44,183 bases of DNA, taken from the sequence record PQ595991.1; one strand, written 5' to 3'. Each line of letters opens with the position of its first letter. Within the stretch, counting starts at the first letter, position 1. This DNA comes from Escherichia phage Psq-1. Below, piece by piece: positions 556 to 44,183 of the stretch. Both the position numbers and the translations under genes were made by a program. A model generated the notes under the pieces. That model was given only the letters and a program-made list of their open reading frames with translations, had not been told where the DNA came from and did no database searches.

Positions 556-676
556 GTGCGGCTATCCGTGATATGCTGATGCACAACCGCTTTGAGATAG
601 GCGGTAGGGTATTTCGCAATTACTTCGTGGCGCGTGCATGGGCGCGCCATATTGGCAAACCGGAAGGGGCAATACG

Positions 677-4052: not shown

Positions 4053-4081
4053 TTGGTGGGCTTTTTTGTGCCTGTTATAAT
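4053..4081 (+). promoter_or_regulatory. candidate sigma70 promoter with extended -10 (TGtTATAAT)
   Basis: TATAAT at 4076-4081 preceded by TGT; weak -35 TTGGTG at 4053-4058 with 17-bp spacer; upstream of the packaging genes. Confidence 0.35.
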
Positions 4082-4130
4082 CCCCCTTAGATGGCAGGGC
4101 CGTCTCCTATGTTGCCGATGGTCGGCGCAT

Positions 4131-15540: not shown

Positions 15541-15870
15541 GGAGCGGGACAGGCGGGACGTCCCGTTTTGTCACGCACCTCTAAAACTGCATATTTACTC
15601 ACCACAATTGCATAAACTAAAAGCGGGACAGGCGGGACGTCCCGTTTTGTCCCACCCCCAAAATGTGAATGTCTATTCAGTTTTAGTGCATAAAGTAAGC
15701 GGGACAAAAAGCGGGACAAACCAGGGGCGGGACAAAGTGGGACAGCACCCCCGTCCCCGTCAGTGCTGCCGCGGGTTTTAGCCGATCGGGACAGGCGGGA
15801 CAAACCCCAGTCTTTCAGACTAGACGGGGGTCAGTTGGCCCCCTCGTCTGAGACTGAATAAGGTTTGTTT
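15541..15870. repeat. iteron-like repeat element, copy A
   Basis: About 12 GCGGGACA/GGGACA boxes, two 30-bp direct repeats (15543-15572, 15622-15651) each holding the palindrome CGGGACGTCCCG, TGCATAAA boxes, and a GC-rich inverted repeat (15808-15856). Segment 15687-15861 recurs at 43050-43222. Confidence 0.6.
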
Positions 15871-24300: not shown

Positions 24301-24781
24301 CACGTTTAACCATGCGGGTGGTAGCGCCACTTATAGCCTTAAGGCTGGCGTGACGTATAACGGGGCTTACTATGATGCCGGTATGCAGCTTTCAGTTGTT
24401 GCGGAAGGTGGCGCGGTTAAATCCCGCATCGCGTTCAAGGCGGACCAGTTCTACATCATGCACCCATCTAATGGGTCGCTTTCGTCCGCGTTTATCGTTG
24501 ACGGCGGTCAGGTGTACATTGACACCGCACGCATCAAGAACGCGTCTATCAACTTCGCGCAGATCACGGACACGCTGCAGTCGAATAACTGGAATCCAGG
24601 CAACAGTGGCTGGCGTATCGCGAAGGATGGCGGGGCGGAGTTCAACAACGTAACGGTACGAGGCAACTTGTTCGCTACTACTGGTAACTTCGGATTCTCT
24701 GGAGGGTCGGTACAGATCGACGCCACCGGCATTAACGTGCCGTTACCTGGCGGGGGTAGGGTGAAAGTGGGGACGTGGTAA
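21335..24781 (+). CDS. central tail fibre / host specificity protein (lambda J-like, 1148 aa)
   Basis: Size, position after the I-like gene, and N-terminal region typical of J-family tip proteins. Confidence 0.85.
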   Translation: MTIVYDVTGHKGGGGKQHTPQETPDSLHSLAKIRILLALGEGEFESITSASELRQRVYLDGTPIQNADLSENFPGARVEFRPGTQHQDVIHGFSAVESEQSVGVKLENGTPWVRQINDTSLDAVRVRIGIPALYTSEDNGDLVGGRIDYKIVVYTDNADPREFTFAAVGKTMSLYERDHRIELPPNVNTGWRVEVHRITADSTSAKVVNDIQVQSITEIIDARLRYPLTALLFVEFDAKAFQNIPRVSIKCKGRKVLIPNNYDPITHTYSGDWDGTFRRAWTDNPAWHWYDICITERFGLGRRIKPQMLNRYALYQIAQRCDQLVSDGNGGREIRFKNDMYIQSQTDAWTVLKDLAAIFAGMTWWGNQMLNIVSDQPVAAVSHTITNASVIDGRFDYASGSQKTRYSTFAVAYGNPKNHYDDAIATGQRVELVRRHKINRLDITAIGCTRESEAQRRGHWALISNQLDQQVSFKVGMEGLFFIPGSVVAIADTNISGGFETRGGRLLSDPGTRTVLNTDSEITFRPGDKFLVRTDSGNVETREIASVNGNKVTLKTALDADPIPDQPFCVDGDDIQLQKFRITDLEYDDSTSTFSVRGIEYNDSKYDAVDNGARLDPGIFTQVPDGVMKGPESVTITPSQISSQGQLITNVDIVFPPVKDAVVYEIQWRRTSLQNMAVQWGNDWVNIPRTASNGAHIPNVFSGNYQARVRAIGMGEISSPWVSSAITPVEGRLGGLNAPIITIAISGLHQILWKWNHNNAATDISYTELEVRKTGETEWKFLTNVPYPGAEYAQTSLEFGIYQQLRARVADKIGNLSDWSAPFEGQVSDKVDEYMKGLDDEFLTSEDGKHFQEAIDTIPQGIYESMLTDAQQLINARSEYQGIYAEIKVAYNVATDAHKAVAQLETLIGTRLDDAEASIHTLQTAQSTHEQAFAQYQQTVAAKFGEQEAAIQQVQTATADVAGALAEYKTQVAAQFGQQSAAIEQKMTSTFNHAGGSATYSLKAGVTYNGAYYDAGMQLSVVAEGGAVKSRIAFKADQFYIMHPSNGSLSSAFIVDGGQVYIDTARIKNASINFAQITDTLQSNNWNPGNSGWRIAKDGGAEFNNVTVRGNLFATTGNFGFSGGSVQIDATGINVPLPGGGRVKVGTW

Positions 24782-24788
24782 AGGAGAA

Positions 24789-24810
24789 GGGGCCATCCGG
24801 CCCCTTTTTT
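24789..24810. terminator. bidirectional rho-independent terminator
   Basis: GGGGCC-ATCC-GGCCCC hairpin with TTTTTT downstream on plus and an A-run on the other side, between convergent genes. Confidence 0.6.
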
Positions 24811-25774
24811 AATAGATGTTAGGAATTACGAGTAACGGGGTGGGTACTGCAATATTTTTACCCGGCATTTGGAATTGCTGCCGTGAATAGTTGCCGATTA
24901 CCCGGTTTTTGGCAATGCGCACATTACCGCCTGCCATTCGAATCCCGTTCATTCGAACGTGATTGTAGCCGCCGTTGTTCTCAATGAGCGCGCCGGTATA
25001 CGAAAGCTGGACCAGGCTATTGCCTATGTACTGATCGCCGCCGCCGATATAGATAAGGCGGTCATAAACAAATGGCTTATTCACTGTTGAGAACGTGACC
25101 TGACCCTGGTTGTTTGTCATGGTTATGCCGTTTCCAGGGGTGGGTGGCGTATTGTTGAATATAACCAGGTCCATTTCAACGGCAGCGCCTACGTCGTCAA
25201 TCCCACCATAGGACGCATTACGGACGATAATACTTCCGCCATCGAAGCCGACCGACACGTTTCCGTCGTCCCAGCGCGCGAATGGGACACCACCTACAGG
25301 TAACGGCATACTTCCGTTCACCCACACGCGCTGCGCATATTGGCAGGTCATTAGCCTGGATACATTTGATATGGCGGTGAAGTCCGTCGAGTTCGCCACC
25401 AGTAACCCTGCGTTGCGCGAACCCACCGGCAACACTTCCATGATCACCCCGCCCCATGTTGGAAGCCCGCTATATGCGCCATATGCGTCTTCACCTCGCA
25501 AGGTGATTCCGCCATCCCCGTTACGTTGTACTGAGGTGACGTAGAAAGGGTCGGGCAAGACCAGTGTCTGGTCGAATACTTCTATAACTTCAACGGGGCT
25601 TGTGAGCGCGACGACCAGATCTGACCCTGGCGTTAGCTGAGTGTTAATAGTAAGCGTCTTATCAGACTGGCAGCGCTGATAGAATGAGGTACAGAATGAC
25701 GGAGCGCGAAGTCCGGCTGTTATCTCCATCACCGGCCTTCCGTCGTTGTAGTCTATAAGTATTCCAGCGCCCAT
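24809..25774 (-). CDS. hypothetical Gly/Asn-rich protein, possible receptor-binding protein (321 aa)
   Basis: ATG 25774 with GGGAG upstream, overlapping the stop of the lipoprotein gene; beta-rich composition (GGGDQYIGNS, NNGGYNH); antisense between J and the tail fibre. Product assignment is by analogy only. Confidence 0.4.
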   Translation of the reverse strand: MGAGILIDYNDGRPVMEITAGLRAPSFCTSFYQRCQSDKTLTINTQLTPGSDLVVALTSPVEVIEVFDQTLVLPDPFYVTSVQRNGDGGITLRGEDAYGAYSGLPTWGGVIMEVLPVGSRNAGLLVANSTDFTAISNVSRLMTCQYAQRVWVNGSMPLPVGGVPFARWDDGNVSVGFDGGSIIVRNASYGGIDDVGAAVEMDLVIFNNTPPTPGNGITMTNNQGQVTFSTVNKPFVYDRLIYIGGGDQYIGNSLVQLSYTGALIENNGGYNHVRMNGIRMAGGNVRIAKNRVIGNYSRQQFQMPGKNIAVPTPLLVIPNIY

Positions 25775-25998: not shown

Positions 25999-26078
25999 GG
26001 TATCATCCCCTATATTTGGTTGAGTTTTAGTATTGCACCGCTCAACCAAGAATGCAACCAATTTATGAGGATTCAGCT

Positions 26079-27719
26079 ATGGCAGCGGGTACACTATCCG
26101 TAACGAATAACAGCAAGGCGGTTGTCGGGGTAGGCACGACGTTTACCACGTTTACCGCTGGCGACTTCTTAACTCTGGTGGTGGGGCAAGTGCCTTACAC
26201 TGTTGCTATCGCGTCCGTCGAAAGCGACACCGCGATTACGCTTGTGCTTCCGTTCGACGGCCCCACGGCAACCGGCCTCGCGTGGGATGGCGTTAAGCGC
26301 GATACCATGTCGCTGGCAACGATGGGCGTAACAGTACAGGCACAGAAAGCGTTGCGCTTGATGATCGCTGACGAAAACAACTGGCGTGCAATCTTCGGAG
26401 ACGAAGAAGAAGTCACGGTAACGCTGCCGAACGGGCAAGTTATGCAAGGTATGGCATGGGGCTACCTGTCACAATTGATGAGGCAGATCGACCCCGTTGA
26501 AATGCGCAACCTGCAACAACAAGCCGCGGCATCTGAAGCAGCAGCGCAAGGATTTCGCAATGAGGCCGAAGGCTTCAAGACTGAGACGGCGGGGATCCGC
26601 GACGCCACCAACCAGATTAAGGCGGATACGCAGGCTATCCGCGACGCCACCAACCAGATTAAGGCGGATACGCAGGCTATCCACGACGCCACCAATACCA
26701 TCAAGACGCAGACGGCCCAGATTAAGACTGACACCGGCGTTATTCGCGATGAGGCCAATGCCGCGAAGGCTGAAGCGCAATCCGCCCGAGATGCCGCGCT
26801 GGGATATCGGAACGAGGCCGAACAATTCAAGAATGAGATTGACCCGTCTAACTTTCTGGCAAAGGGTGGCAACCTGGCTGGGTTAACTGACTTGTCCGAG
26901 TCGCGGGATAACTTGGGTTTAGGAGCGTTGGCGACTAAAGATTCGGCGGCGCTAAACTCCACAGATACGACCGGTATTCTGCCCTTAGATAAGGGCGGTT
27001 TAGGCGCTGGTACCATCCCTGGCGCACGGGAGACGATGCATATTTATGGTCATGACGCTACGTTCGGGACCATAAATAATATCCTCACATACTTCAACAA
27101 TATTGCGGGTAACGGCGGACTCTTCTCGTTTCGAGATGGTGCCGTTGACGCCACTAACACCTACAAATTCGGCTCAGCAATACTGTTTCGCTCAGCCGAC
27201 ACCTACGGACTGTTAAGTGTTGACCACAACAACGGAAACGTTAGAGCATCCGGTGGTGTAGTTTCTGGTGGGATCGCGGCCACAGCATACATCAACAACC
27301 TGTGGGGTACGCGTAACACCACCGTAGACGGTAACGGGTTTATTAAAACCGCGTCGCCCATCGTCAAGATCTTCAGTGACGGTGCCGCGGAGACTAACGA
27401 CGAGGCCGAAGGCGTTACGGTGACTCGCATATCTGCGGGGGTGTATGTTGTGGAGGGGTGTCTAGGCCTCAACTCAGACCCATCCTGGGGCGGGCCTGAC
27501 GGCGGGATTGAGATTCCGACGGACGTGAACAAGCAGCCTCGTTTATGGGTTGATTATAAAGTGCGCGCTGACGGCTCTGTGGAGGTACGCACATACCACC
27601 GAACACACCCACACGCTCCAGCATTCGCAAGAAATGAGATAGAAGGTGTGGCGGAAGGGGACCCGGTTGATATACCGCGTGGCACGTTCATATCTGTTCG
27701 GGTTAATATGCCTGAGTAA
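26079..27719 (+). CDS. tail fibre protein (546 aa)
   Basis: ATG 26079 with GAGGA upstream; coiled-coil shaft with 14-aa repeats (IRDATNQIKADTQA), Gly-rich C-terminal domain. Confidence 0.7.
   Translation: MAAGTLSVTNNSKAVVGVGTTFTTFTAGDFLTLVVGQVPYTVAIASVESDTAITLVLPFDGPTATGLAWDGVKRDTMSLATMGVTVQAQKALRLMIADENNWRAIFGDEEEVTVTLPNGQVMQGMAWGYLSQLMRQIDPVEMRNLQQQAAASEAAAQGFRNEAEGFKTETAGIRDATNQIKADTQAIRDATNQIKADTQAIHDATNTIKTQTAQIKTDTGVIRDEANAAKAEAQSARDAALGYRNEAEQFKNEIDPSNFLAKGGNLAGLTDLSESRDNLGLGALATKDSAALNSTDTTGILPLDKGGLGAGTIPGARETMHIYGHDATFGTINNILTYFNNIAGNGGLFSFRDGAVDATNTYKFGSAILFRSADTYGLLSVDHNNGNVRASGGVVSGGIAATAYINNLWGTRNTTVDGNGFIKTASPIVKIFSDGAAETNDEAEGVTVTRISAGVYVVEGCLGLNSDPSWGGPDGGIEIPTDVNKQPRLWVDYKVRADGSVEVRTYHRTHPHAPAFARNEIEGVAEGDPVDIPRGTFISVRVNMPE
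26595..26678 (+). repeat. perfect 42-bp tandem duplication inside the tail fibre gene
   Basis: ATCCGCGACGCCACCAACCAGATTAAGGCGGATACGCAGGCT twice (26595-26636, 26637-26678), followed by a degenerate third unit. Confidence 0.85.
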
Positions 27720-27731
27720 AGCATAATGCGA

Positions 27732-27753
27732 AGGGGCCATTCGGCCCCTTTTT
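27732..27753. terminator. bidirectional rho-independent terminator
   Basis: AGGGGCC-ATTC-GGCCCCT hairpin followed by TTTTT, between convergent genes. Confidence 0.6.
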
Positions 27754-28327
27754 AATTTGAGTTTTCCCAGTCCATTTTGCGCCGCACAAGCGGGCTTTCG
27801 TAGTATTCCTTACCTTCCACTTCCACTAAATGCCAGTCATTCACAATCACGTATGGCTCTGCTATATCCTCAATCACGCCGTGCGCGCTATGCTGCCCGA
27901 ACGACACGCCAACCAGAATAACTCCGGCAACCCGACGGGAAAGATACTCGCGGGCACAACGGGCCTCAACCAGACCGCGACGGATGCCGCTGGTGGCTTT
28001 GACCTCATATGTCCAGACGGCATCAATCATGTGCTCTTTGTAGTCGGGACCGGATTTTACCTTGCGCTTGCCGACCATGATAATATCGCCGCGGTCAATG
28101 GTATTGGCGCTAAACAGGCCGGTACGCATGAGCAAGCCTTGAGGGATACAACTGCGCCCGCCTGCTTGCCCTTCCAGGTACATGCCCGCAAACATCTCGC
28201 CCAGCACACCGACCAGTCGGCTTTGCTTGCACGCGTCAGACTTTAAGCGCCATTGGTCAAACTCGATGCTTGCTATCATTGCCGCCAGGTGGAATTGTTT
28301 ACCAGATATTTCATATTCGCCGTACAT
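27752..28327 (-). CDS. hypothetical protein with PD-(D/E)XK-like signature (191 aa)
   Basis: RGDIIMVGKRK...GPDYKEHMIDAVWTYEVK resembles the D...(D/E)xK core seen in the VRR-NUC protein of this genome (PDLIIIINGKIVFVEVK). Weak. Confidence 0.35.
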   Translation of the reverse strand: MYGEYEISGKQFHLAAMIASIEFDQWRLKSDACKQSRLVGVLGEMFAGMYLEGQAGGRSCIPQGLLMRTGLFSANTIDRGDIIMVGKRKVKSGPDYKEHMIDAVWTYEVKATSGIRRGLVEARCAREYLSRRVAGVILVGVSFGQHSAHGVIEDIAEPYVIVNDWHLVEVEGKEYYESPLVRRKMDWENSN

Positions 28328-30949: not shown

Positions 30950-31641
30950 TTTAAATTTTCCTCGTTAACCGCTATCGCGAAGCCGCGCGGGGTGAGCGAC
31001 CTGATTAATTTGGTGCGGGCAGATTTGCCTCCGAGGCGACTATACTGCTTCGAGTACCCTTTTTCAACGAAAACAGGTTTCTTCTCTGGCATACGGAAGC
31101 CGTTGCCGGTCCATAAGCAGGTCATCTTCGGATATGAATCGCGGGCGTTGATGTATTCCGGGAAGAGCGGGTGTACGTCATCCTCCGGCAGATATCCGCC
31201 ATACTCCCACGGGTCAAACGAGTGGTCCGGCTTACGCCATTGAGTTGATAGCACGCTGCGCGGATTCTCAATCATATACGGCACTTCAAAGAAATCACCC
31301 AGGTAAGCGGCGATCTTCGCGGTGCGCACCGCCTTAAGCTGGAAGGCAGGGTCGCGGGCGCGTTTGCGCGGGAAAGCTGGCGCACCGCTAACCGCCAGGT
31401 CCGTACACGGCGGGAATGCATAAATGATATCCGGCGTACCGAAATCGCCATTCATCGCGCGGTCTACAAAGTCCAGATCGATAAACTCATTACGATAGCG
31501 GATACCGCGCCCATAAATCCGGTAGTCCAGGTACGACCCGTGATCGGCTTCGGAGTAGTTGAAGCAATAACATTTATGCCCCATCTCGGCAGCACGCTCA
31601 ATCATCAAGCCGCTGCCGTCAAACAATGACCAAATTATCAT
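30946..31641 (-). CDS. compact C5-cytosine DNA methyltransferase-like protein (231 aa)
   Basis: Motif I-like SLFDGSG, PC motif AFPPC, ENV-like IENP, possible motif X GFAIAVNE; far shorter than canonical C5 methylases. Confidence 0.45.
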   Translation of the reverse strand: MIIWSLFDGSGLMIERAAEMGHKCYCFNYSEADHGSYLDYRIYGRGIRYRNEFIDLDFVDRAMNGDFGTPDIIYAFPPCTDLAVSGAPAFPRKRARDPAFQLKAVRTAKIAAYLGDFFEVPYMIENPRSVLSTQWRKPDHSFDPWEYGGYLPEDDVHPLFPEYINARDSYPKMTCLWTGNGFRMPEKKPVFVEKGYSKQYSRLGGKSARTKLIRSLTPRGFAIAVNEENLK

Positions 31642-33062
31642 TTGCGCGCCTTTTTAGCTTTCATGTATTCCATCAGGTCATCCTGTATATCTCGCTTACT
31701 GTCGCGACGCTCTGCGACTAGCTCATCCAGTGTGCCGCGCGCCTGGATAATGTAGACGAATACCGGTCGAGGGTGTCCGGCCTGCATCTGGCGAACCGGC
31801 CCGATACGCTCCACAATCTGCGAAAAATGCTCATAGTTCCAGGTGTCGGAGAAGATGGCAAGGTGGTGTCCGCCGTCCTGCAAGTTAAGGCCGTGGCCTG
31901 CCGATGCCGGGTGTGCAAACATGATGGGGATCTCGCCCCTGTTCCACGCTTCCATATCCTTATTGCCCTGCTTACCCTTACCCAACGAGACGCCGTGGGG
32001 AAATTTCTTCTTAAGACGTGCCAGGTCATGCTTATACTGATACGCAACGAGCAACGGCGCGCCGTTCAACTCCTCCACGATACTTTCCAGCGCGTCCAGT
32101 TTGGCGTCGTGAATCTTCACCCACTCGTCGGTCCGTTCGCCGTCTTCGTCCACCTTATACACAGCGCCGGAAGCAAGCTGAAGGCACTTAATTGTCTTCG
32201 ATGCCGCGTTCGCCGCTTCCACAGTCCCGCTTTCCAGTTCGGCAAATAGCTCGCTTTCAAACTGGTCGTAAATCTTGCGGGCTTTCTTCGGCAGGTCCAC
32301 AACAACCGGCGTATAGATTGGCTTGTCGCACCCGAAGTATTCAGCCGCGTCAACGGTGAGGGATACGTCAGACAGGCGTTGTTGGATCTCCTTCTCGGAG
32401 TTCTTTAGCGGGGCGTGCTGCATAGTGAAGCTGCCAGGCTTAACAGGCTTGCTAATAAACCAGCGGTCTGTGAATGCCTTATAACTACTGCCGAGGCGTT
32501 CGCCACCGTCGACAAACCACGTCTGACCCCATAGGTCTTTCAGTCCGTTTGGTGCGGGTGTGCCGGTAAGGTTAATCCAGCGCTTGACGCGCTTATGTGC
32601 GATCGCCGCCAGGGCGCGGGCGCGCTTACTTCCCTGCTTGCTTCTATATCCTTTCAGCTTAGTGGATTCATCGGCAACAACTACCGTAAAGGGCCACTCG
32701 TCGCCGCAATACTCGACAAGCCACTCAACCACATCATAGTTAACACAAACCACGTTAGCGTCGCTCTCAAGCGCAGCGATGCGGTCCTTCTCCGACCCGG
32801 TGCCGTCTACTACCAGCAGGGCGGGGAAGCGCCATTTTTCTTGTTCCGGGGGCCATGTGCCCGATGCAACGCGCAGCGGGGCAAGCACCAGTACGCGGTC
32901 CTCCTGGTTGGACAGGATGCCGGTCTGGAACATTTTATTCAGCGCCCACATGGTCGCGCCGGTTTTACCCGACCCCATTGTCGCCCATATATTGCATCGC
33001 TTATGCTTGAGGATGAACGCGGTTATCAACTTCTGATATTCGCGACGTCGGAAACGTGCCAT
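31638..33062 (-). CDS. SNF2-family DEAD-like helicase
   Basis: ATG 33062; Walker A ATMGSGKT, DExx box VVVADEST, motif III LTGTPAPN. Confidence 0.8.
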   Translation of the reverse strand: MARFRRREYQKLITAFILKHKRCNIWATMGSGKTGATMWALNKMFQTGILSNQEDRVLVLAPLRVASGTWPPEQEKWRFPALLVVDGTGSEKDRIAALESDANVVCVNYDVVEWLVEYCGDEWPFTVVVADESTKLKGYRSKQGSKRARALAAIAHKRVKRWINLTGTPAPNGLKDLWGQTWFVDGGERLGSSYKAFTDRWFISKPVKPGSFTMQHAPLKNSEKEIQQRLSDVSLTVDAAEYFGCDKPIYTPVVVDLPKKARKIYDQFESELFAELESGTVEAANAASKTIKCLQLASGAVYKVDEDGERTDEWVKIHDAKLDALESIVEELNGAPLLVAYQYKHDLARLKKKFPHGVSLGKGKQGNKDMEAWNRGEIPIMFAHPASAGHGLNLQDGGHHLAIFSDTWNYEHFSQIVERIGPVRQMQAGHPRPVFVYIIQARGTLDELVAERRDSKRDIQDDLMEYMKAKKARK

Positions 33063-33563: not shown

Positions 33564-33822
33564 CCAATAAATCACAGTCGGCTATGTTGTCTATAACGCG
33601 AACGTCCGCACCGCGGCGGGCCATTCGCTCATGTTCTCGTACCTGGTGCGGCTTTGGTTTACCGCCTGGGCGCTTCACTTCGACGAAAACTATCTTGCCG
33701 TTGATGATGATTATCAGGTCGGGCGCTCCTGCGCGCCCCTCCCATGCCACTTTACGGCAGAATCCGCCGACGGCTTTCACCCTCTTCATAAGGTAACTTT
33801 GGATCTTGCCTTCTGGTGTCAT
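33544..33822 (-). CDS. VRR-NUC domain nuclease (92 aa)
   Basis: APDLIIIINGKIVFVEVKRPGGKPKPHQ matches the PD-(D/E)XK core of VRR-NUC proteins. Confidence 0.7.
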   Translation of the reverse strand: MTPEGKIQSYLMKRVKAVGGFCRKVAWEGRAGAPDLIIIINGKIVFVEVKRPGGKPKPHQVREHERMARRGADVRVIDNIADCDLLVAELVA

Positions 33823-36113
33823 TATTTTCTGTACCTGTACATAATGTCGCCTTCCGCGGCAAGCGGGAAGCCTTTCGCCCAAACAGGGAGGTCGCACATC
33901 AGCGCGCACAACTCCTCGGTTGTGTAGTCGTCAGTATCCGGCACTTCGGTTATCAGTTCATCGTGTACGGACAGTACGATCTCATATCCCGCAGATTCAA
34001 CGCCCGGCATGGACCATGCGAGGATATCGCGGCACAGAGCCTGCACGATGTTTTCCGTCAGTTTGCCGCCGTAGGTGTACTGGAATCCCCACTGGCGCGT
34101 CGTCTGATTCTCACCCTGATATTTAATGCGGGTGCTGGTGCGCTTCTTGCCGGTGTCTTCGTCGATCTCGGTCGTGACAGACAGCGCGATGCCCGGATAA
34201 CTCATGATGCGCCCCGACGGCAACTCGATTTTCAACCACCACCCCGCGGCGTTCGGGTCGTCGCGCTCCTCGTCGAAGGTGGGGTCGTGCTTCGCCTTCG
34301 TGCGGACTATCTTGAGCGCTTTCTTGCCATCAGGGCGAACGTTCGCGCCAGCCCAGTACGCTTTGCCCGGATTGCGGATCGCGCAGAGCACCGCGTCTTC
34401 CAGTTCAGCCCAAAATGCTACCGTCTTCGGGTGCGACTCGCGCCACATACGTTTGATCGCATCACACGTCAACCATACGTTTTTCGGCAGTATATAAGTT
34501 GGGCGCTCGTCCTTCTTGCCAGGCTTCGGCGGGCGCTTCGCTTCGTTAATGCGGGCATATTCATAACCACGTTTCGCCGCAGCCCAAATATGATCGGGGA
34601 ATGTACCCTTCATGACGTCCGCCATCGCATACAGGTCTAGACCCAGGTTTTTAGCGAACTGCAAGAACGCCGCAACGCCGCCGCCATAGCCTAGTCCCAA
34701 TTCGCACGCCTTACCGATCTGGCGTAAGTCTTTGCGGTTGGCTTTAATGTATTCCGGGTCGAGGCCAAACATCTTACCGGCAGTTTCACAATAAATATCG
34801 CGACCGGCCTTAAACACCATTAGCGCGGTTTTCTCGCCAGCGACCCAGGCAAGCCCGCGTCCTTCCACGTTGGAATAGTCCGCTACGACAAACTTCTTGC
34901 CCTTCGCCGGAATAATGCACCCGCGAACGGTCGAGGCCGTTAGCTTCGATATGTCATACGCCCAGTGCGCTGTCCCGCGTAACAGGGAATTGATGCCGTT
35001 GGTAAGCATGTGCGACCGGACCCAAAAAGAAACGTCGCTCTCGCCTTCACGGCGTTTAATCTTCCCTTCGTGGTCGTCGCTATACTCGCCGCGTGCCAGG
35101 TTTTGAGGTTGAAAGCCTTTACCGGCCCAGCGTAGCGTGCGCTTTGCCCCACCATACTGAAGACAACCACGGCGGCGACCATCGGCGGACAGGCCATTGA
35201 CAAGCGGATTGTATTTAGTAGATGCCGTTGATGACGCACCGAGGCGCATTTCGATAAGCGCTTTGCCTTCGTCGGGGAAATCCGGGTCTTCCAGCAGGTC
35301 GTTAAGCGTGGATTTCTGCGCGTTGTGGATTGTGAACGCAGGCGCGAGGTCGCGCAGCGCTGGCAGGAAGTCATTGCCGGTCAGCTTACCACCGAAGCGC
35401 TCCCAGGCTTCTTCCTTCAACTCTTCCTTATGCGCCTGCACCGCTTTGATCGCAGCGCGCGCCAGGTCAACGTCCACGTAGAAGCCGCGGTCGTTAATCA
35501 ATTGGTCGATAAGCAGGATTTCGTCTTCCTTCGGCGTATTACCCCAGTCCGGTATGCGCCAATAGACTTCCCTCATCGCGATGATGTCCAGCGCGGCATA
35601 GCGCAGGAATTTAGCCCACTCCTCGGGGTGCGTCTTGCGCGTGTAGCGGCGGATTTTGTAGGTCTTAGGGGTAGGCTTACAGAATCGTTTAATCAGCGCC
35701 TTGCCTGCCTTATCCTTCGCGTGTTCTGCGTCAACACCCAACACCTGGCATTGCATATCGAGGCTACCCGGCAGCGCGTGTCGAAAGGCCATAATCATGG
35801 TATCTTCGATCTGGCACACTGGCAGATCTATACCCCACTTTTCGCGAATAACCAGGCGGTCAAACAGGAGGCCGTTAGCCATCACTATTTTTGCTTTCTT
35901 GCGGGATACACGGCGGAGCGCCTTGCGCAGTTCGCGCGGCATCGTAGGGGATTCGGTGCAATCCCAGGTCTGTACGCGGCCCTCGTCGATGGCGTAGGTG
36001 CAGATCATAATCTCGGTTGTCGGGTGCTCTGCGTAGGCGTATGCGCCAACTTTCTTCAGGTCTACCCCGCTAAATGTCTCGGTATCGAGAAACAGGCGTT
36101 TGAAGTCTTTCAT
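33822..36113 (-). CDS. DNA polymerase I-type (family A) with 3'-5' exonuclease domain
   Basis: ATG 36113 with GAGGA upstream; exo motif FLDTETFS near the N-terminus; 763 aa with a family A polymerase-like C-terminal half. Confidence 0.8.
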   Translation of the reverse strand: MKDFKRLFLDTETFSGVDLKKVGAYAYAEHPTTEIMICTYAIDEGRVQTWDCTESPTMPRELRKALRRVSRKKAKIVMANGLLFDRLVIREKWGIDLPVCQIEDTMIMAFRHALPGSLDMQCQVLGVDAEHAKDKAGKALIKRFCKPTPKTYKIRRYTRKTHPEEWAKFLRYAALDIIAMREVYWRIPDWGNTPKEDEILLIDQLINDRGFYVDVDLARAAIKAVQAHKEELKEEAWERFGGKLTGNDFLPALRDLAPAFTIHNAQKSTLNDLLEDPDFPDEGKALIEMRLGASSTASTKYNPLVNGLSADGRRRGCLQYGGAKRTLRWAGKGFQPQNLARGEYSDDHEGKIKRREGESDVSFWVRSHMLTNGINSLLRGTAHWAYDISKLTASTVRGCIIPAKGKKFVVADYSNVEGRGLAWVAGEKTALMVFKAGRDIYCETAGKMFGLDPEYIKANRKDLRQIGKACELGLGYGGGVAAFLQFAKNLGLDLYAMADVMKGTFPDHIWAAAKRGYEYARINEAKRPPKPGKKDERPTYILPKNVWLTCDAIKRMWRESHPKTVAFWAELEDAVLCAIRNPGKAYWAGANVRPDGKKALKIVRTKAKHDPTFDEERDDPNAAGWWLKIELPSGRIMSYPGIALSVTTEIDEDTGKKRTSTRIKYQGENQTTRQWGFQYTYGGKLTENIVQALCRDILAWSMPGVESAGYEIVLSVHDELITEVPDTDDYTTEELCALMCDLPVWAKGFPLAAEGDIMYRYRK

Positions 36114-36339
36114 TGCTGGATCCTCACTACGGCGTCGGCGCTGCCGATCATGGAGAAGATACCGTCGGAAAGGGTTATCTCCTCGCCGTTGTTGCGAATC
36201 TCGGCAACGGTGAAATATTCCCCCAGTAACTTGGACCATACTCGCATTCCGACTTTTACTTCGCTGGCTTTAATGCGCATTTTTCATTGTCCTATTAAAA
36301 AAGCCCGCATTAAGCGGGCTTGAATAGTGGGCTTTGCCC

Positions 36340-37401: not shown

Positions 37402-38824
37402 TGCTTAAGTCCTCGTCAGTAGCTTCAGACCACGTGGGGCGCGGGTCGTCGATTGGTGCTAACACCGGTTTTGCAGGTGCGCGTGTGATTTTAGCACACA
37501 GCTTCGCCCACACTTTCGGTTTTTCGTCCTTCAGCACCTTCTCGGCATCGGTAGGGCTGAGCAATGTTTCTTTGTACATCACATCGCGCTTAATCCGAGC
37601 CTTAGTGAATATTTCAATCACTTCGCTCTCGTCCGCCCACTTACGGATTCCTTCCTTACCGGCAACCATCTTGAGGCCCAGCGATTCGCCATCCCCAGCC
37701 ATTACCGCTTTGAATACCGCGGACTCGATAGCTTTGATGTGCTGGCGCATTGCGTCCAGGCCTTCATAAGCCTTGCGCAGTTCCGCCGCGCTCATAGCTC
37801 CTGGTGTGGATTCCTTCTTGCCTCGTTTAGCACGTCGGGCAGCCTTCCGGGCTTCGCGGGCCATATTGCGATTGTGGTTGGCGCATTCTTCCTCGGTCGC
37901 CACGCTCACGTCGTCGCCCAGGTCTTCGTCGGTTGCCGTTGGCGGGGTCATCGTGTCGATTGCGGCCTTCGCCCGGACGCTGCACTGATCCGCGAAGCGA
38001 CACCACTGGCACGCATCAACGCTCGGTCGGAAGTCGGCGCGGTTGAGTCCCTTTTTGCCGCGTTCGTACGCATCCAGTGCGATGACAGCGCGCTTGGACG
38101 CAAACTTCGCGAATATTTCCAGGGCTTCTACCGAAATATCCCACTCTGACGCCCCGCCGCAATACGGCTGGAAGATGACCAGGCGCACGGTCGTAATGTC
38201 GTACATGGTTTGCAGCTTGCGCAGCAGGCCGAGCGCGTACAACATAAGCTGTTTGTTTTCTTTCGCCTCGACCTTATGTCGACCAGTCTTCAGGTCGCCA
38301 ACAATCAGCATGTACGTGCCGTCGGTCTTCTTCATGACCATGACCATATCGGCAGTGCCGAACGTTTTAACCTTGTTACCGTCGATCTCGACGCCGGGGT
38401 GGAGAACGCGGGTGAGATCGGAGCGCATCTCAAGCTGGACAAACTCCGCCACTTCAAGGAGCGGTCGCCAGTGGTCGATGTACGCATCGCACTGCTTCAC
38501 CATATCGTCGTTGACCAGTACGCCGCCTTTCGGTGCTTTTGGGTGGGCCTTTACCGGTCCCTTGCCTTCGTTCTCGACGTAACATCCTTTATACGTCTTC
38601 GCGGTTATTTTCTTCTCACCGGCGATAATGCGGTTTAGCACCACTTCAGATACTGTGTGCATACTCGTACCGTTAATCGCTGCCTGCCCGGATTCGTTCG
38701 GGATATCTTTTTCTACCACCAGGGCGGCGGGACACCCCATCCATTTTTTAGCACCGGATGGTCCGAGTAATGAGTGCTCCGTATTGCTACCGGATTGCGT
38801 CTTACGTTTTGGTTTAATCGCCAT
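37394..38824 (-). CDS. DUF2800-like PD-(D/E)XK (Cas4-like) nuclease
   Basis: 476 aa; nuclease-core-like LIVGDLKTGRHKVEAK; C-terminal Cys cluster CQWCRFADQC consistent with an Fe-S site. Confidence 0.6.
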   Translation of the reverse strand: MAIKPKRKTQSGSNTEHSLLGPSGAKKWMGCPAALVVEKDIPNESGQAAINGTSMHTVSEVVLNRIIAGEKKITAKTYKGCYVENEGKGPVKAHPKAPKGGVLVNDDMVKQCDAYIDHWRPLLEVAEFVQLEMRSDLTRVLHPGVEIDGNKVKTFGTADMVMVMKKTDGTYMLIVGDLKTGRHKVEAKENKQLMLYALGLLRKLQTMYDITTVRLVIFQPYCGGASEWDISVEALEIFAKFASKRAVIALDAYERGKKGLNRADFRPSVDACQWCRFADQCSVRAKAAIDTMTPPTATDEDLGDDVSVATEEECANHNRNMAREARKAARRAKRGKKESTPGAMSAAELRKAYEGLDAMRQHIKAIESAVFKAVMAGDGESLGLKMVAGKEGIRKWADESEVIEIFTKARIKRDVMYKETLLSPTDAEKVLKDEKPKVWAKLCAKITRAPAKPVLAPIDDPRPTWSEATDEDLSNE

Positions 38825-39012
38825 TATTCCACCCTTGAAAACTGAGCAATGTAATAGTCATGTTTAACACCGGCCCGCTTCGCGGCTTCGTTCATGGTAG
38901 CCGCCAAACCTCTGGCTTGAGTCCAGCAGCAATTCCAGTTCTGATTCATAACGATTTCTGGTTGCTCATCGCCGGTAATACGGCAGCGAAATAAAACGAA
39001 AAATATAGCCAT
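38824..39012 (-). CDS. hypothetical protein (62 aa)
   Basis: Track ORF in an operon gap; low confidence. Confidence 0.3.
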   Translation of the reverse strand: MAIFFVLFRCRITGDEQPEIVMNQNWNCCWTQARGLAATMNEAAKRAGVKHDYYIAQFSRVE

Positions 39013-39264
39013 TTATTTTGTCTCCCAGCGGTCAATTGTTTTTGCTTCGGATGCAACGGCGAAACGAACATATTCCAGATTTGAATCAGCCCAAATATAA
39101 AAGTCGGGATTAGTAAAGGTGGCGCGCTTAATTTGCGCGGGTGTGTTGCGGCGTTTATCAATTACGGCAACGCGCGATTGAAAGCTGCCGATGCGTTCGA
39201 ATAGCCAATAGTACGGGCGCTGGTCGCGGGAATCCACCGCCTCGATTAGCGTGAAGCGTGCCAT
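39013..39264 (-). CDS. hypothetical protein (83 aa)
   Basis: Track ORF with GAGGA-type RBS. Confidence 0.4.
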   Translation of the reverse strand: MARFTLIEAVDSRDQRPYYWLFERIGSFQSRVAVIDKRRNTPAQIKRATFTNPDFYIWADSNLEYVRFAVASEAKTIDRWETK

Positions 39265-39277
39265 TGTCTCGTCCTCT

Positions 39278-39304
39278 AAAAATAGGCCCGCAGATTAGCG
39301 GGCC
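39278..39304 (-). terminator. rho-independent terminator or attenuator on the minus strand
   Basis: Stem GGCCCGC / GCGGGCC with 6-nt loop, followed on the minus strand by TATTTTTA. Confidence 0.4.
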
Positions 39305-39312
39305 GGATAATA

Positions 39313-39822
39313 TTAGTCTTCCAGTTCGAAATAGGTTTCGACGATTTCTTTCAGATCTTTGTGGAAGTCTTCGACGTCGTCATCTTCCAGTTTAGCGATT
39401 GATTTGATCTCGAACGATTCCAGCAGGTCGTCAAATTCGTCGTTGGCGTCGTCGTCATCACCACCGGCGATAATCGCGGCATACTGTTTGATTTCGTCGC
39501 GCATCTCTGCCAGCGGATCGGCATCTTTCTTACCTTTGCCTTTCGCCGTGGCTTTTTTACCTTTCGCCGGTTTTTCGTCTTCGGCTTCATCGTCGTCATC
39601 TTCTACGACTTCTTTTTTGGCCTTACCTTTCGCCGGTGCTTTTTTGGTTTTCGCCGGTGCTTCGTCTTCAGCGTCGTCATCTTCTACGACTTCTTTTTTC
39701 GCCTTAGACGGCTTCTTGTCTTCCTGCGTACCAACGGCAGCGCCAACGGTTTCATAATGTTTAGCGATTGTTTCCAGTGCTACTACGCCGCGAGTAATCA
39801 GGTTTACGATTTGTTCAAACAT
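39313..39822 (-). CDS. highly charged tandem-repeat protein (169 aa)
   Basis: ATG 39822 with GGAGA upstream; two 26-27-aa repeats KKEVVEDDD-EDE-PAK-KKA-AKGK-KK plus acidic D/E runs; nucleotide-level tandem repeat at about 39540-39720. Confidence 0.5.
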   Translation of the reverse strand: MFEQIVNLITRGVVALETIAKHYETVGAAVGTQEDKKPSKAKKEVVEDDDAEDEAPAKTKKAPAKGKAKKEVVEDDDDEAEDEKPAKGKKATAKGKGKKDADPLAEMRDEIKQYAAIIAGGDDDDANDEFDDLLESFEIKSIAKLEDDDVEDFHKDLKEIVETYFELED

Positions 39823-40018
39823 GGTATATCTCCGATTGGTTAAGTTTAGGTGTCGACCATTAACTTCGTCGGTGGCCTTAACATATTGCCAGGTTACGCG
39901 TTCTCCCGTTCGGGTAGTGGACCTGGTTATATAATCACGGTTGGGAATCCTGACACTTCGATCCGGCCCCTGCGTTGCCCCTCTCCAGTTTGCGTCCTGC
40001 ATCCTGTCGACGAGGTGA

Positions 40019-40047
40019 ATATTAGATTGGTTGCATGAGGGAGTCAA
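40019..40047 (-). promoter_or_regulatory. sigma70-like promoter for the minus-strand early/replication operon
   Basis: Minus strand reads TTGACT (-35), 17-bp spacer containing TGCAACCAA, TAATAT (-10). Confidence 0.4.
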
Positions 40048-40059
40048 CAACTAATTTCA

Positions 40060-40115
40060 AAAAAAAAGCGCCGAAGCAAAATGCGACGGCGCTAACCAAT
40101 AAGAGACAATGAGAC
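40060..40115 (-). ncRNA. candidate small RNA (~56 nt)
   Basis: Minus-strand promoter TTGAAA-17-AATAAT (40122-40150) followed about 55 nt later by terminator hairpin GCGCCG...CGGCGC and a 9-U tract (plus 40059-40092); no ORF. Confidence 0.25.
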
Positions 40116-40163
40116 GGGGGTATTATTACACGCGTGCGCGCCCGTTTCAATATTCCAAAGGAG

Positions 40164-40192
40164 TTGACACCCTGCGGTTTTAGGTGTAGTTT
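40164..40192 (+). promoter_or_regulatory. sigma70-like promoter for the HTH and primase genes
   Basis: Perfect -35 TTGACA (40164-40169), 17-bp spacer, weak -10 TAGTTT (40187-40192). Confidence 0.4.
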
Positions 40193-40223
40193 CGTTGGTC
40201 ATTAACCAACCGGAGACAGAACA

Positions 40224-40553
40224 ATGAATATCGACGACGCAATCGAAATGTTAACTAAGACTGTTTGCAGTGAGACTAGCCGGTCTTGGGCATATACAGA
40301 TGCCGTTGGGGCGGTGCTATTTGAAATCGAACGTCTGCGACTTACCGAAAAAGAATTGCGCGCGAAGCTGGAATTACTCAACGGTACGGCAGCCAGCAAG
40401 CTGCAAAAGCACAATGAAGAAATGGAAGAATACAAAAAACAGGTTATCCGTTTGCGCGATGAGGGGAAGTCATGGGCGATGATCGCCGAGTTGACAGGAA
40501 TTAATCAGAGCACCGTGCGCTCCTGGGTACGCAATAACAAAACTTCGAAATAA
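40224..40553 (+). CDS. HTH domain protein, putative regulator (109 aa)
   Basis: C-terminal HTH GKSWAMIAELTGINQSTVRSWVRNNK; coiled-coil middle; first gene of the plus-strand early unit. Confidence 0.5.
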   Translation: MNIDDAIEMLTKTVCSETSRSWAYTDAVGAVLFEIERLRLTEKELRAKLELLNGTAASKLQKHNEEMEEYKKQVIRLRDEGKSWAMIAELTGINQSTVRSWVRNNKTSK

Positions 40554-40723
40554 GGCAACGGCAATGAGCTTAATTAAATTCGCTGTAACAAGACCCTCAT
40601 GGGCGATGATCGCCGAGTTGACAGGAATTAATCAGAGCACCGTGCGCTCCTGGGTACGCAATAACAAAACTTCGAAATAAGGCAACGGCAATGAGCTTAA
40701 TTAAATTCGCTGTAACAAGACCC
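40470..40723. repeat. exact 127-bp tandem duplication (40470-40596 and 40597-40723)
   Basis: Both copies read identically by eye; they span the last 28 codons of the HTH gene and the first 11 codons of the primase gene. Confidence 0.9.
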
Positions 40724-42955
40724 GCTAAAAAAGGCGAAAAAGCCAGGGCGGAAAACTTCCAGATGACAACTGATGAATTTTTCGAATTTATCAATGACGC
40801 GAAAGAAATCTCATCGGTGCACATCAACAAGACCGAGGATAAAGCTGAGTATGCGCGCCGCAAGCGCAAGGCCGATGGCATCGTGGCATATACCAGTGAC
40901 GGCCTACGCCGTAAGACCAGCGCGGTGGACCGCTCGATCCTGTTCTTTGATATTGACCGCACCGACACTCGCACCTTGCGCCGCTGCCGTAAGGCGTTCA
41001 TTGACGCGGGTCTGGAACACGTATTCCACACAACCACCGGCGATCGCCACCCGCTGAAAGGCGGCACGCGTTGCGCCCGTTTCCTTGTGCTCACAGATAA
41101 ACCAGTACCGGCGGAAGACCTGGGCCGCGTCCAGTACGCGCTGTTAGACCAACTTGGTCTGTCAGATGTGGACTTCGACGATTGTACGAAGGACACAAAC
41201 CGTCTTATGTACCTGCCACACCAGCAGTCTGTCATTAAGTGCCACCACGGCAAACGTGCCAATGTGCGGCGTCTGCTACGCCTGGCGGATAAGCTGGGAG
41301 TGGAGAAAGAGGAAGTACGCCGCGAGCTTACCCAGGGCGACGACGCAGTGGCGGACGGGATTCTGGACTGGTGCTTCCAGGCAGGATTCGAGGAGTTATC
41401 TTCCGGTCGCGGTTATGAAGTTCCGTGCCCGAACGAACATCTGCACAGCGGCGAAGGGTCGACGGCTATCATGGTCAAGGATGGCGAGATCCGTTTCAAG
41501 TGTATGCACACCGGCAACGAGTGTTGCTCGGAGCTAAATAGACACCAGCACCTTGCGCTACGTCTCATCGGGATACCGGACCACCTGAACGTCGAGCCGC
41601 ACAACATGTCACGTAAGCAAATCGCCGCCATCCTGCCAGGTCTGGACGACGAGGAAGTCGAATCCTTATATGACCACATTGTTGATGCGGTTGGCGACGG
41701 CGAAGAATATGGCGTGTGCACCGATGCGGATCTTGATAACGAGCCGGTTGCGCTGTTCAGTAAGCACGACCCGATCATCGAGGGGTTGATTAACTTTAAA
41801 TCGACCTGGTACATGGCGGGTGAGTCGAATATCGGTAAGTCTTTCTATGTGCTGGGGCAGATGGGCGCGGTTGCCGCCGGTATTCCGTTTGGCGGTGCGA
41901 AGGTCGTCCAGTCGCATTGCTTCTATTTCGATGCGGAAGGCGGCGAAGCCTCCAACCAGCGCAAAGAAGCATTGCAGATTAAATATGAGCACGACCTGGA
42001 CAAGCTGCACATTATAGACCTGCAGTCACGCGGCTGGGATATCACCAGCAAGTCCGGTTTGCGCGAAGTTATCAGCTTTATCAACCGCACCGCTAACGGC
42101 GAACCGGTTGGCCTGGTGGCGTTCGACTCACTTAACCAGACTGTTGCGCTGCGGTCCGCCGATGCTAAACCGTTTGACGAGAACAACGCCAGCGATATGG
42201 GAGAAGTGGTCAAAGCGCTGAAAGCCATTGCGGAAAATACAGGTGGCAGTGCGGGCGTCATCCACCACCCGGCGAAAGGTGCAAACGGCAGCAGAACCCC
42301 ACGCGGATCCGGCGCACTGCATGGTGCTGTCGATTCAGCTTTCTTCCTGGAACAGCCGGACGACAACCAGCCAGGACAACTCAACCTGTATCACGAAAAA
42401 TCACGTAATGGCATCAAGCAAGCGCCGCGTGGCTTCGTCCTGCTCAAGTGCAAGGTGGAGGTGGATCTCCGCAAGTCAGAAGCGTTCGCGTCGCACCAGT
42501 CCACCAGCACCGGGCCGGACTTCGGAGACGTCGTTGCCGGTTGGGACGTCAAACCAATTGCGTCCACCCCGCGCGACGAGACTCTGTACCTCGTACCAGT
42601 AGCCCTGGCACCGTTCGCTATAGAACAGGCAAAGGCCGCTGGCAAAGCCGCAGTTAAGGAAGAAAACGCCGCCGGTCCGCGCAACGAAAAAGAGAAAGTG
42701 CTTTATGCGGCCCTGGAAAAACTGATGGAAGATAACCCTAACCATACTGGATTCAGTAAATCGGCAATTGTCCGCCAGGCGGGACTCGCGAAGGGTGGTA
42801 CTTCGACGAAAGCAATCGACGATATGGTGGAGCGTGGCGTGATTGGTTTTTATACAGATCCGCACACCGGGGCCATATATGGGTCGTCGAATTTAGTCAT
42901 CAAATCGGATATTCCCATAACGCTTTCGGCGACCGACGACGACCTGAAGGATTAA
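40691..42955 (+). CDS. DNA primase/helicase-type replication protein (754 aa)
   Basis: Zn-binding-like HLHSGEGS...FKCMHTGNECC; P-loop GESNIGKS and Walker B-like LVAFDSLNQ in the C-terminal half. Confidence 0.6.
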   Translation: MSLIKFAVTRPAKKGEKARAENFQMTTDEFFEFINDAKEISSVHINKTEDKAEYARRKRKADGIVAYTSDGLRRKTSAVDRSILFFDIDRTDTRTLRRCRKAFIDAGLEHVFHTTTGDRHPLKGGTRCARFLVLTDKPVPAEDLGRVQYALLDQLGLSDVDFDDCTKDTNRLMYLPHQQSVIKCHHGKRANVRRLLRLADKLGVEKEEVRRELTQGDDAVADGILDWCFQAGFEELSSGRGYEVPCPNEHLHSGEGSTAIMVKDGEIRFKCMHTGNECCSELNRHQHLALRLIGIPDHLNVEPHNMSRKQIAAILPGLDDEEVESLYDHIVDAVGDGEEYGVCTDADLDNEPVALFSKHDPIIEGLINFKSTWYMAGESNIGKSFYVLGQMGAVAAGIPFGGAKVVQSHCFYFDAEGGEASNQRKEALQIKYEHDLDKLHIIDLQSRGWDITSKSGLREVISFINRTANGEPVGLVAFDSLNQTVALRSADAKPFDENNASDMGEVVKALKAIAENTGGSAGVIHHPAKGANGSRTPRGSGALHGAVDSAFFLEQPDDNQPGQLNLYHEKSRNGIKQAPRGFVLLKCKVEVDLRKSEAFASHQSTSTGPDFGDVVAGWDVKPIASTPRDETLYLVPVALAPFAIEQAKAAGKAAVKEENAAGPRNEKEKVLYAALEKLMEDNPNHTGFSKSAIVRQAGLAKGGTSTKAIDDMVERGVIGFYTDPHTGAIYGSSNLVIKSDIPITLSATDDDLKD

Positions 42956-43049
42956 ATTTTGCGCGCATTGGTTGCCATTTTGAGTGTTTTTAGCTGGTCG
43001 CATTGGTTGCCGTGTAGTGTAAAAATATTGAATAGTTATGCAATAAAAC

Positions 43050-43222
43050 TGCATAAAGTAAGCGGGACAAAAAGCGGGACAGACCAGGGGCGGGACAAAG
43101 CGGGACAGCACCCCCGTCCCGCCCCGGATGACGCGGCCTGGCGAGGAGCGGGACAGGCGGGACAACTACCAGTCTTTCAGACTAGACGGGGGTCAACGGC
43201 CCCCCTCGTCTGAGACTGCATA
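43050..43222. repeat. iteron-like repeat element, copy B
   Basis: Six GCGGGACA boxes, a TGCATAAA box, inverted GTCCCGC...GCGGGAC, and the same GC-rich inverted repeat as copy A (43170-43217). AT-rich stretch at 43021-43050. Confidence 0.6.
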
Positions 43223-43370
43223 AAATCCGGGATTGCAAAATACACGGCAGCACATTGTAAATTGCGGTCGTCGCGGAACTAGGCAACCAATGCGGGATGC
43301 AGAACGTGGTGTGAAAAATGCAGTCACAGCAGATAGCGATCAACTTTTTCATACGCGTGATTAATATTGG

Positions 43371-43399
43371 TTGCATTCACCTCGGCGCCTTGCTATATT
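43371..43399 (+). promoter_or_regulatory. sigma70-like promoter built from two ATTGGTTGCA boxes
   Basis: -35 TTGCAT (43371-43376), 17-bp spacer, -10 TATATT (43394-43399). Confidence 0.4.
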
Positions 43400-43426
43400 G
43401 GTTGCACACCAACAGGAGGGCGGAAC

Positions 43427-43606
43427 ATGAAAACCGAAATGGTTGATAAGCACGAAATCAAGATCGGCGATACGGTAGTCCACAACGGGGGGCTTCGCAC
43501 TGTGTGCAAGCGAGCGTTTAGCATCGATGAATTTATGGGACTGCTACTTTGGGGCGACAGCTATCGTTTAGGGTATAAACTGGTTGAGAGGGTTACGGAA
43601 CGATGA
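43427..43606 (+). CDS. hypothetical early protein (59 aa)
   Basis: ATG 43427 preceded by AACAGGAGGG. Confidence 0.45.
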   Translation: MKTEMVDKHEIKIGDTVVHNGGLRTVCKRAFSIDEFMGLLLWGDSYRLGYKLVERVTER

Positions 43607-43908
43607 GAGCACTAATCTGGAATTACACAATGGCGGTGGCAAAGCTGTACGAAGCAAAACACACAAACGGCAACGCAGACGACGCGCGCCAGGTTGTCGT
43701 CCTGGCCCAGCAGGGAATCATGGACGCGTTCGACGATATGTTTGTCCGCCTGGACGAACTTGAACCGCTGCGCGTGGCAATCTGCGAATATGCGATGGCA
43801 TTTGCCCGTGAACGCCTGGCGTATCGCTTCGGGATCGGCGAGACGGCAGTGACAAACGTCGCCCGGATTAAAGCCCAGCGTGAACTATTCGCCCAGCTTG
43901 CGAAATAA
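43603..43908 (+). CDS. hypothetical early protein (101 aa)
   Basis: ATGA overlap with the upstream gene. Confidence 0.45.
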   Translation: MRALIWNYTMAVAKLYEAKHTNGNADDARQVVVLAQQGIMDAFDDMFVRLDELEPLRVAICEYAMAFARERLAYRFGIGETAVTNVARIKAQRELFAQLAK

Positions 43909-43917
43909 GAGGCCAAA

Positions 43918-44183
43918 ATGCGCCGTAGACGAGCCAAACAGCTTTCGTGGCATATTCCACTGCATTGCATACGAATATGGGCTGAGAATGCGACTGAGGG
44001 CGAATCTGTATTCTGGTGCTATCGCGACGACGTAAAGCCGTTGACGCAGACTCGCTACTTGCACCAGTTCGCAGCACAACACGATTTCAGGGTGCGGACT
44101 TCCTTGCAACAAATGGGGATCCGAATTACATTACGCCGGAAGCCCGCAGTCGAGCGGGTAGGCAAACACTGGAGACTGAGCAA
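43918..44183 (+). CDS. hypothetical early protein, open at window end
   Basis: ATG 43918 preceded by AAGAGG; no stop before the window end. Confidence 0.4.
   Translation, partial: MRRRRAKQLSWHIPLHCIRIWAENATEGESVFWCYRDDVKPLTQTRYLHQFAAQHDFRVRTSLQQMGIRITLRRKPAVERVGKHWRLS

Follow-up and report, generated by a model that had tools for sequence, protein, structure and literature searches.

The 44,183-nt record of Escherichia phage Psq-1 (PQ595991.1) begins on the A of a start codon and ends inside another gene. We asked what the two ends of this stretch, referred to here at its whole length as the window, represent: the physical ends of a DNA molecule, the edges of a slightly incomplete assembly, or the point at which a closed map was opened.

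Coding evidence across the record ends

The last open reading frame of the window opens at an ATG (43918-43920) and runs stop-free for 88 codons and two further bases, 266 nt in all, to the final position, as an earlier note on this DNA had described. Upstream of it lie an in-frame TAA (43906-43908) and an AAGAGG ribosome-binding site (43907-43912). When the end of the record is joined to its start, the last two bases (AA, 44182-44183) and base 1 (A) form the lysine codon AAA, which is followed by TGA at bases 2-4. The same note had proposed that the join reads AGC AAA TGA, with the stop overlapping the first ATG as ATGA, and the proteins bear this out. The joined product has 89 aa and matches the phrog_12533 profile over positions 1-89 of 89 (E 1.2e-56), and the ORF at 1-555 matches phrog_10243 over positions 1-184 of 184 (E 1.3e-97). 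No Pfam domain was found in either the joined gp51-like or the gp52-like protein. The gp51-like protein shares both its length and its C-terminus (...GKHWRLSK, then the stop) with gp51 of SO-1, AV129 and EP23; HK578 gp51 also has 89 aa, but ends in ...GEHWRLRK.

The boundary falls between a gene and its translation signals, and the first gene, judged by the GGAG motif at 44171-44174, has its ribosome-binding site among the last bases of the record. Further ATGA overlaps are found at 43603-43606 and 552-555, so that the boundary cuts a run of translationally coupled plus-strand genes (Table 1). Where the window has the ORF at 552-692, the AV129 and HK578 records annotate 141-nt ORFs.

Taken alone, the ATGA join is weak evidence. 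A chance join would fall in the right frame about one time in three and would present an ATG followed by A about one time in four (170 of the 673 ATGs in the window), giving a probability of roughly 8%. As this is only mildly improbable, the case rests on homology.

Table 1 Positions of the features discussed, in the numbering of the window
Feature	Position	Strand	Remarks
gp52-like gene	1-555	+	184 aa; phrog_10243; function not assigned; first gene of the record
ATGA overlap	1-4	+	Base 1 completes AAA, codon 89 of the gp51-like gene; 2-4 are its TGA; 1-3 are the gp52-like ATG
46-aa ORF	552-692	+	ATG overlaps the gp52-like stop as ATGA
Small terminase subunit	4053-4703	+	phrog_3064, E 6e-73; compare SO-1 gp1, 55-627
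Large terminase subunit	4703-6088	+	Terminase_6N and Terminase_6C above Pfam cut-offs; phrog_10250, phrog_2
Portal	6100-7620		Family matches
Tape measure, tail, DNA polymerase and lysis genes			Assigned by position and collinearity with annotated SO-1 genes
Duplicate, copy 1	40470-40596		Putative 3' end of the original assembler contig
Duplicate, copy 2	40597-40723		Putative 5' end of the original contig; contains the real helicase-primase start (40691)
Helicase-primase	40691-42955		Family matches; 2265 nt, as in SO-1
gp49-like gene	43427-43606	+	
gp50-like gene	43603-43908	+	101 aa; phrog_9839; ATG overlaps the gp49-like stop as ATGA
gp51-like gene, first 266 nt	43918-44183	+	89 aa; phrog_12533; function not assigned; completed by bases 1-4
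Shine-Dalgarno-like GGAG	44171-44174	+	9 nt upstream of the ATG at position 1

Genome identity and genus placement

A megablast search of 50,697 phage records matched the window to 145-158 of them at 80-96% identity, and none of the matching records was identical to it. The matches are nearly all Escherichia or Shigella phages, and many are classified as Dhillonvirus, including HK578, SSL-2009a, JL1, EP23, SO-1 and the BASEL phages. The ICTV genus threshold is about 70% intergenomic similarity, judged here by the identity of alignment blocks; those shared with SO-1, at 87-92% identity, span nearly the whole length of the window. Gene order was assessed from the ORF list, the family matches and collinearity with the 59 annotated genes of SO-1. 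It follows that of the genus, with small and large terminase subunits, portal, head, tail, tape measure, tail tip and tail fibre genes, and then replication genes in a minus-strand block, the helicase-primase gene, small genes and lysis genes. Around the junction, HK578 (JQ086375, the Dhillonvirus type species) and AV129 (OR352959) show the same order as the window, gp49, gp50, gp51, gp52 and lysis genes, at 88-93% identity. Scans of the whole window for tRNA genes and against Rfam gave no match.

The size of 44,183 bp, or 44,056 bp without the 127 bp of a duplicate described below, lies within the 43.1-45.9 kb of the genus records among those listed. The earlier note's arithmetic was right, and its view that either size suits a complete siphovirus genome agrees with this range. 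By these comparisons, the window is the entire genome of a virulent E. coli siphovirus, an ordinary HK578/SO-1-like Dhillonvirus.

One Dhillonvirus record, PQ843332.1 (Escherichia phage P-GXEC-L2P5), has 88,607 bp, about twice the genome size of the genus. It contains three to four matching places per probe and looks like a dimeric or concatenated assembly.

Contiguity of the join in related genomes

The closest view of the join comes from Sodalis phage SO-1 (GQ502199 / NC_013600), a circular record that is collinear with essentially the whole window at 87-92% identity. The stretch 40597-44183 of the window pairs with SO-1 37819-41402, and 1-2049 pairs with SO-1 41403-43422; where the window ends and begins again, SO-1 thus passes directly from 41402 to 41403, and no base is dropped or inserted. 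A construct of the junction aligned to SO-1 over 741 ungapped nt at 92% identity, with about 50 identical bases running across the join. In SO-1, gp51 (41137-41406, 270 nt) and gp52 (41403-41927) share the same 4-nt ATGA overlap, at 41403-41406, and as in the window no ORF intervenes. The SO-1 gp52 protein has 174 aa, against 184 aa for the gp52-like protein.

The exact 34-nt junction sequence is internal in SO-1, in Shigella phage EP23 (as a 44,077-bp IMG/VR contig) and in the metagenome contig ERZ1036441 NODE-224 (44,686 bp), and each of the three gives one alignment block across the join. A 755-nt junction probe was covered to at least 80%, in one place, by 83 phage records. An exact 44-mer across the join had no match in IMG/VR, and searches for proteins identical to gp52, gp50 or the tail fibre found no same-strain contig.

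The end and the start of the window are thus contiguous in independent genomes (SO-1, EP23 and NODE-224) and, as far as comparison shows, the join 44183/1 is ordinary contiguous DNA. The full profile matches and the uninterrupted relatives make the ATGA join decisive. The suggestion that the record is a complete genome opened at a start codon is therefore upheld, the codon being the gp52-like ATG.

Several differences from SO-1 lie away from the join. SO-1 has a gp7 moron, and the matching stretch fails to align to the window; nor do the C-terminal part of the tail fibre and a stretch at about 2.0-2.5 kb of the window align to SO-1. The SO-1 DNA polymerase gene carries a group I intron with an ORF, whereas the polymerase ORF of the window is uninterrupted. 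The intron stretch of about 0.9 kb (SO-1 31197-32090) is absent at about 34704-34706 of the window, within the minus-strand polymerase gene (33822-36239).

A variable slot between gp51 and gp52

Between gp51 and gp52, AV129 has an extra small ORF of 153 nt (1878-2030) and HK578 one of 93 nt (1919-2011), and many further relatives also have an ORF of 93-153 nt exactly at this point. The window, SO-1, EP23 and NODE-224 have no ORF in the slot. Similar GAGAC(T/A)GAGCAA(A)TGA coupling modules stand on either side of the insert and could act as short recombination boundaries for it.

An exact 127-bp tandem duplicate

The 127-bp duplicate to which the earlier note had drawn attention is real in the record, as an exact tandem at 40470-40596 and 40597-40723. 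The two copies are 100% identical and adjoin directly, with no microhomology at their edges; their junction reads ...AACAAGACCC / TCATGGGCGA... (GACCC/TCATGG). Each unit comprises 84 nt from the 3' end of an HTH gene (40224-40553), an intergenic spacer and 33 nt from the 5' end of the helicase-primase gene; both genes are intact despite the duplicate. A 38-aa chimeric ORF (40564-40680) is created by it, in which the first 11 codons of helicase-primase precede the last 27 of the HTH gene.

Relatives have a single copy. With an 801-nt query over the duplicate, 28 of the 30 matches listed showed a 674-nt span (801 − 674 = 127). One of the remaining two gave 672 nt for query 1-799, and the other was an 88.6-kb, apparently dimeric record with 751 nt in three pieces. 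A single stretch of SO-1, 37819-37945, aligns to both window copies. In eight of eight independent Logan/ENA contigs that encode an identical 109-aa HTH protein, helicase-primase starts 11 nt past the stop of that protein, and the copy-junction sequence is absent from all eight. A 33-mer over the copy junction had no match in IMG/VR.

The length of the unit points to an assembler. The largest k-mer used by SPAdes is 127, and a closed circular contig from a k-mer assembler has k identical bases at its two ends. The duplicate has the marks of such an overlap, being an exact repeat whose length equals the assembler's k and which is single-copy in the relatives examined. A direct precedent is phage U136B, for which a SPAdes contig carried a 127-bp terminal repeat that the authors trimmed (PMC8104045). 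U136B is a short-read assembly of a circularly permuted phage genome, as the window probably is too, and each has an exact 127-bp repeat. In U136B, however, each contig end bore one copy and trimming preceded the reopening, whereas the copies in the window are adjacent and internal, which would imply rotation without trimming. A pipeline of SPAdes followed by reordering with PhageTerm has been used for another Dhillonvirus, EE09 (PMC10673088).

The duplicate is thus most likely the end overlap of a circular contig, left untrimmed when the contig was afterwards rotated, a reading in which the assembler and the rotation step are deduced from the length of 127 and the perfect identity only. Short reads would have been assembled by a de Bruijn assembler of the SPAdes type with k = 127, and the contig would have closed on itself, leaving the same 127 bp at both ends. 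Rotation to a new start without trimming would then have set both copies side by side at 40470-40723. The original contig would have run from 40597 to 44183 and from 1 to 40596. With contig ends at 40596/40597, the join 44183/1 would be internal to that contig and the k-mer closure would lie at 40596/40597. An untrimmed overlap would mean that a circularising assembly was rotated afterwards, and would so provide an independent indication of closure. The true non-redundant unit would be 44,056 bp, and the 38-aa ORF, if the duplicate is an artefact, is almost certainly spurious.

Packaging and the physical form of the genome

The two ends of the window share no terminal overlap. Read-based studies of the genus bear on the form of the virion DNA. 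The assembly of Opt-212 was circular, with a headful call from PhageTerm (PMC9022532). UDS3lw (44,071 bp), assembled with SPAdes from 2x250 reads and then analysed with PhageTerm, was reported as headful with a preferred pac site (PMC13348001). BF9 was described as headful of the P1 type (PMC10059673). Among the bov phages, four of five were called circularly permuted and one, bov25_1D, was called 'fixed' (PMC8407724). The TerL of Dhillonvirus K19 groups with Jerseyvirus and P1 terminases (PMC10783031).

The report on EE09 (OR756193) differs, as PhageTerm gave a 10-nt 5' cos end, ATCTTAAGGG (PMC10673088). The 10-mer ATCTTAAGGG is absent from the window, where the sole near match has one mismatch and is at chance level. 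Judged by alignment coordinates, the first base of the EE09 record corresponds to a point within the replication genes, at about 30.5 kb of the window. The EE09 cos call conflicts with the other genus reports and looks doubtful.

The terminase proteins were also considered. TerL has Terminase_6N and Terminase_6C matches above Pfam cut-offs, domains that are not exclusive to headful phages, and showed no sequence match to any solved structure. TerS has weak matches, below Pfam cut-offs, to the P22 gp3 and Sf6 small terminase models. In the headful pac phages P1, P22 and SPP1, virion DNA is expected to be terminally redundant and permuted, and assemblies close into circles, as does that of the window. 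As for the terminases, any likeness of the window to these phages would lie in the Terminase_6N/6C domains of TerL and in the weak P22 gp3/Sf6 similarity of TerS.

The records of relatives, among those listed, open at many different places and on both strands, and such scattered openings are expected where fixed ends are lacking. On the four read-based reports (PMC9022532, PMC13348001, PMC10059673, PMC8407724), we consider the virion DNA of this phage most likely to be linear, terminally redundant and circularly permuted, in which case the circle would be an assembly map rather than a physical form. By analogy with the relatives, headful (pac) packaging from concatemers would generate such DNA. 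Permuted virion DNA of this kind would let reads assemble into a circle and would have no fixed ends at the window boundaries. The earlier proposal of a circular or permuted genome is therefore supported, and the relatives make permuted linear virion DNA with a circular map its most likely form.

Where the record opens

By convention, Dhillonvirus records open at the small terminase gene (PMC9022532). SO-1, HK578, EP23, Over9000 and others do so, SO-1 just upstream of the gene and HK578 near it, unlike the window, which opens at the gp52-like gene; the AV129 record likewise does not share the window's start. Because the record of the window opens exactly at the gp52-like ATG, the coupled gp51-like gene lacks its final 4 nt at the end of the record, and the gp52-like gene is parted from its ribosome-binding site. 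With about 65 gene starts in 44,056 positions, a terminus would fall on the A of a start codon by chance in about 0.15% of cases. This coincidence suggests that the position was chosen as a gene start, by hand or by software, and was not measured as a terminus. Position 1 was also considered as a terminus predicted by PhageTerm, which we judged unlikely on account of the same exact coincidence. The nearest parallel among 60 of the 156 records is that of TH11, with an opening 16 nt ahead of the homologous ATG. The split gene stems from the writing of the record and not from biology.

Weighing the explanations

We consider it highly probable that the window is a whole Dhillonvirus genome from a circularly closed assembly linearised at the gp52-like ATG, with the duplicate as an untrimmed overlap and with headful packaging. 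That the boundaries should instead be true ends of the virion DNA, whether cos or blunt and fixed, and the in-frame join a coincidence, appears extremely unlikely. Such ends would interrupt a coding gene at the last 4 nt of its reading frame and part the gp52-like ATG from its GGAG ribosome-binding site. They would also be some 4 kb upstream of the terminase genes, from which the lysis genes separate them. The joined protein covers its family profile in full, and the sequence is uninterrupted in three independent relatives. Fixed ends do have reports in their favour, namely the 10-nt 5' cos of EE09 and the 'fixed' call for one bov phage, and the ATGA join by itself carries the roughly 8% chance given above; yet the EE09 10-mer is missing from the window, the EE09 start maps to about 30.5 kb and not to the ends, and a terminus exactly on a start-codon A has the probability of about 0.15%. 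A different concern is completeness. Since the gp51/gp52 boundary is variable, synteny of the AV129/HK578 type would alone be compatible with a short missing piece, and AV129, HK578 and many relatives carry a small ORF at exactly the point where the record breaks. A linear, slightly incomplete record that lacks a short segment between its last and first bases, such as an ORF of 93-153 nt, is nonetheless very unlikely. The join matches SO-1, EP23 and NODE-224 base for base, with about 50 identical bases across it, and the record, having stopped two bases into the last sense codon, resumes with exactly the next homologous base, as a random break would not. The duplicate elsewhere in the window further indicates that the contig closed on itself.

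The duplicate itself might be biological, either as a recent duplication at the HTH/helicase-primase boundary or as a short direct terminal repeat whose copies were left adjacent by rotation. It would be tolerable, since both genes are intact (the HTH stop is at 40553, and helicase-primase keeps 94 nt upstream of 40691), and headful phages tolerate small changes of length. Its features are nevertheless those of an assembly product: exactly 127 bp, the largest SPAdes k-mer, 100% identity and no microhomology at the edges. SO-1, the listed relatives examined and eight of eight contigs lack it, and its junction 33-mer is absent from IMG/VR. In this genus, for which most reports are of headful packaging, there is no precedent for a terminal repeat that covers the start of a replication gene and lies about 8 kb away from the terminase genes. 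A biological origin is on this evidence unlikely. We likewise see only a small chance that the 127-bp duplicate is real or, as a second possibility, that small genes are swapped at the gp51/gp52 slot by way of the repeated coupling module.

Other sequence features

Two non-coding repeat blocks, 78-88% alike, were found at 15544-15802 and 43062-43164 (in wider limits, 15543-15861 and 43029-43223). The tape-measure gene has one of them on its upstream side; the other follows closely on the helicase-primase gene. The window has 15 GCGGGACA octamers against 1.95 expected, and 12 of the 15 fall in the two blocks, all 12 on the plus strand. The blocks correspond to the 'region A/B' repeat_regions of SO-1, which has the same arrays. 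As a guess, they may serve as arrays for regulator binding or as origin sites of the iteron type.

The tail fibre gene (26052-27719) contains four tandem 42-nt (14-aa) repeats at 26577-26777, with 61-100% identity; no alignment to SO-1 was obtained for the part of the gene downstream of these (window 26829-27729). A pair of similar hairpins, rich in G+C and each followed by a run of T (GGGGCCATCCGGCCCC TTTTT), occurs at 24781-24816 and 27725-27760. Both are placed where convergent genes meet, one on each side of the tail-fibre region, and they look like bidirectional intrinsic terminators.

Implications

What is added here is the reading of the internal 127-bp duplicate as, very probably, an untrimmed assembler overlap, which corroborates circular closure and flags an error to be corrected. 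One of the two copies should be removed unless reads prove both to be real, as its retention leaves a spurious 38-aa ORF and an inflated genome length. Annotation of the gp51-like gene has to span the origin, unless the record is given a new start, such as the small terminase gene (4053) customary in the genus. The biology is already known and the split gene brings no new biology; the value of the finding is practical, in that the record is to be treated as a 44,056-bp circular map.
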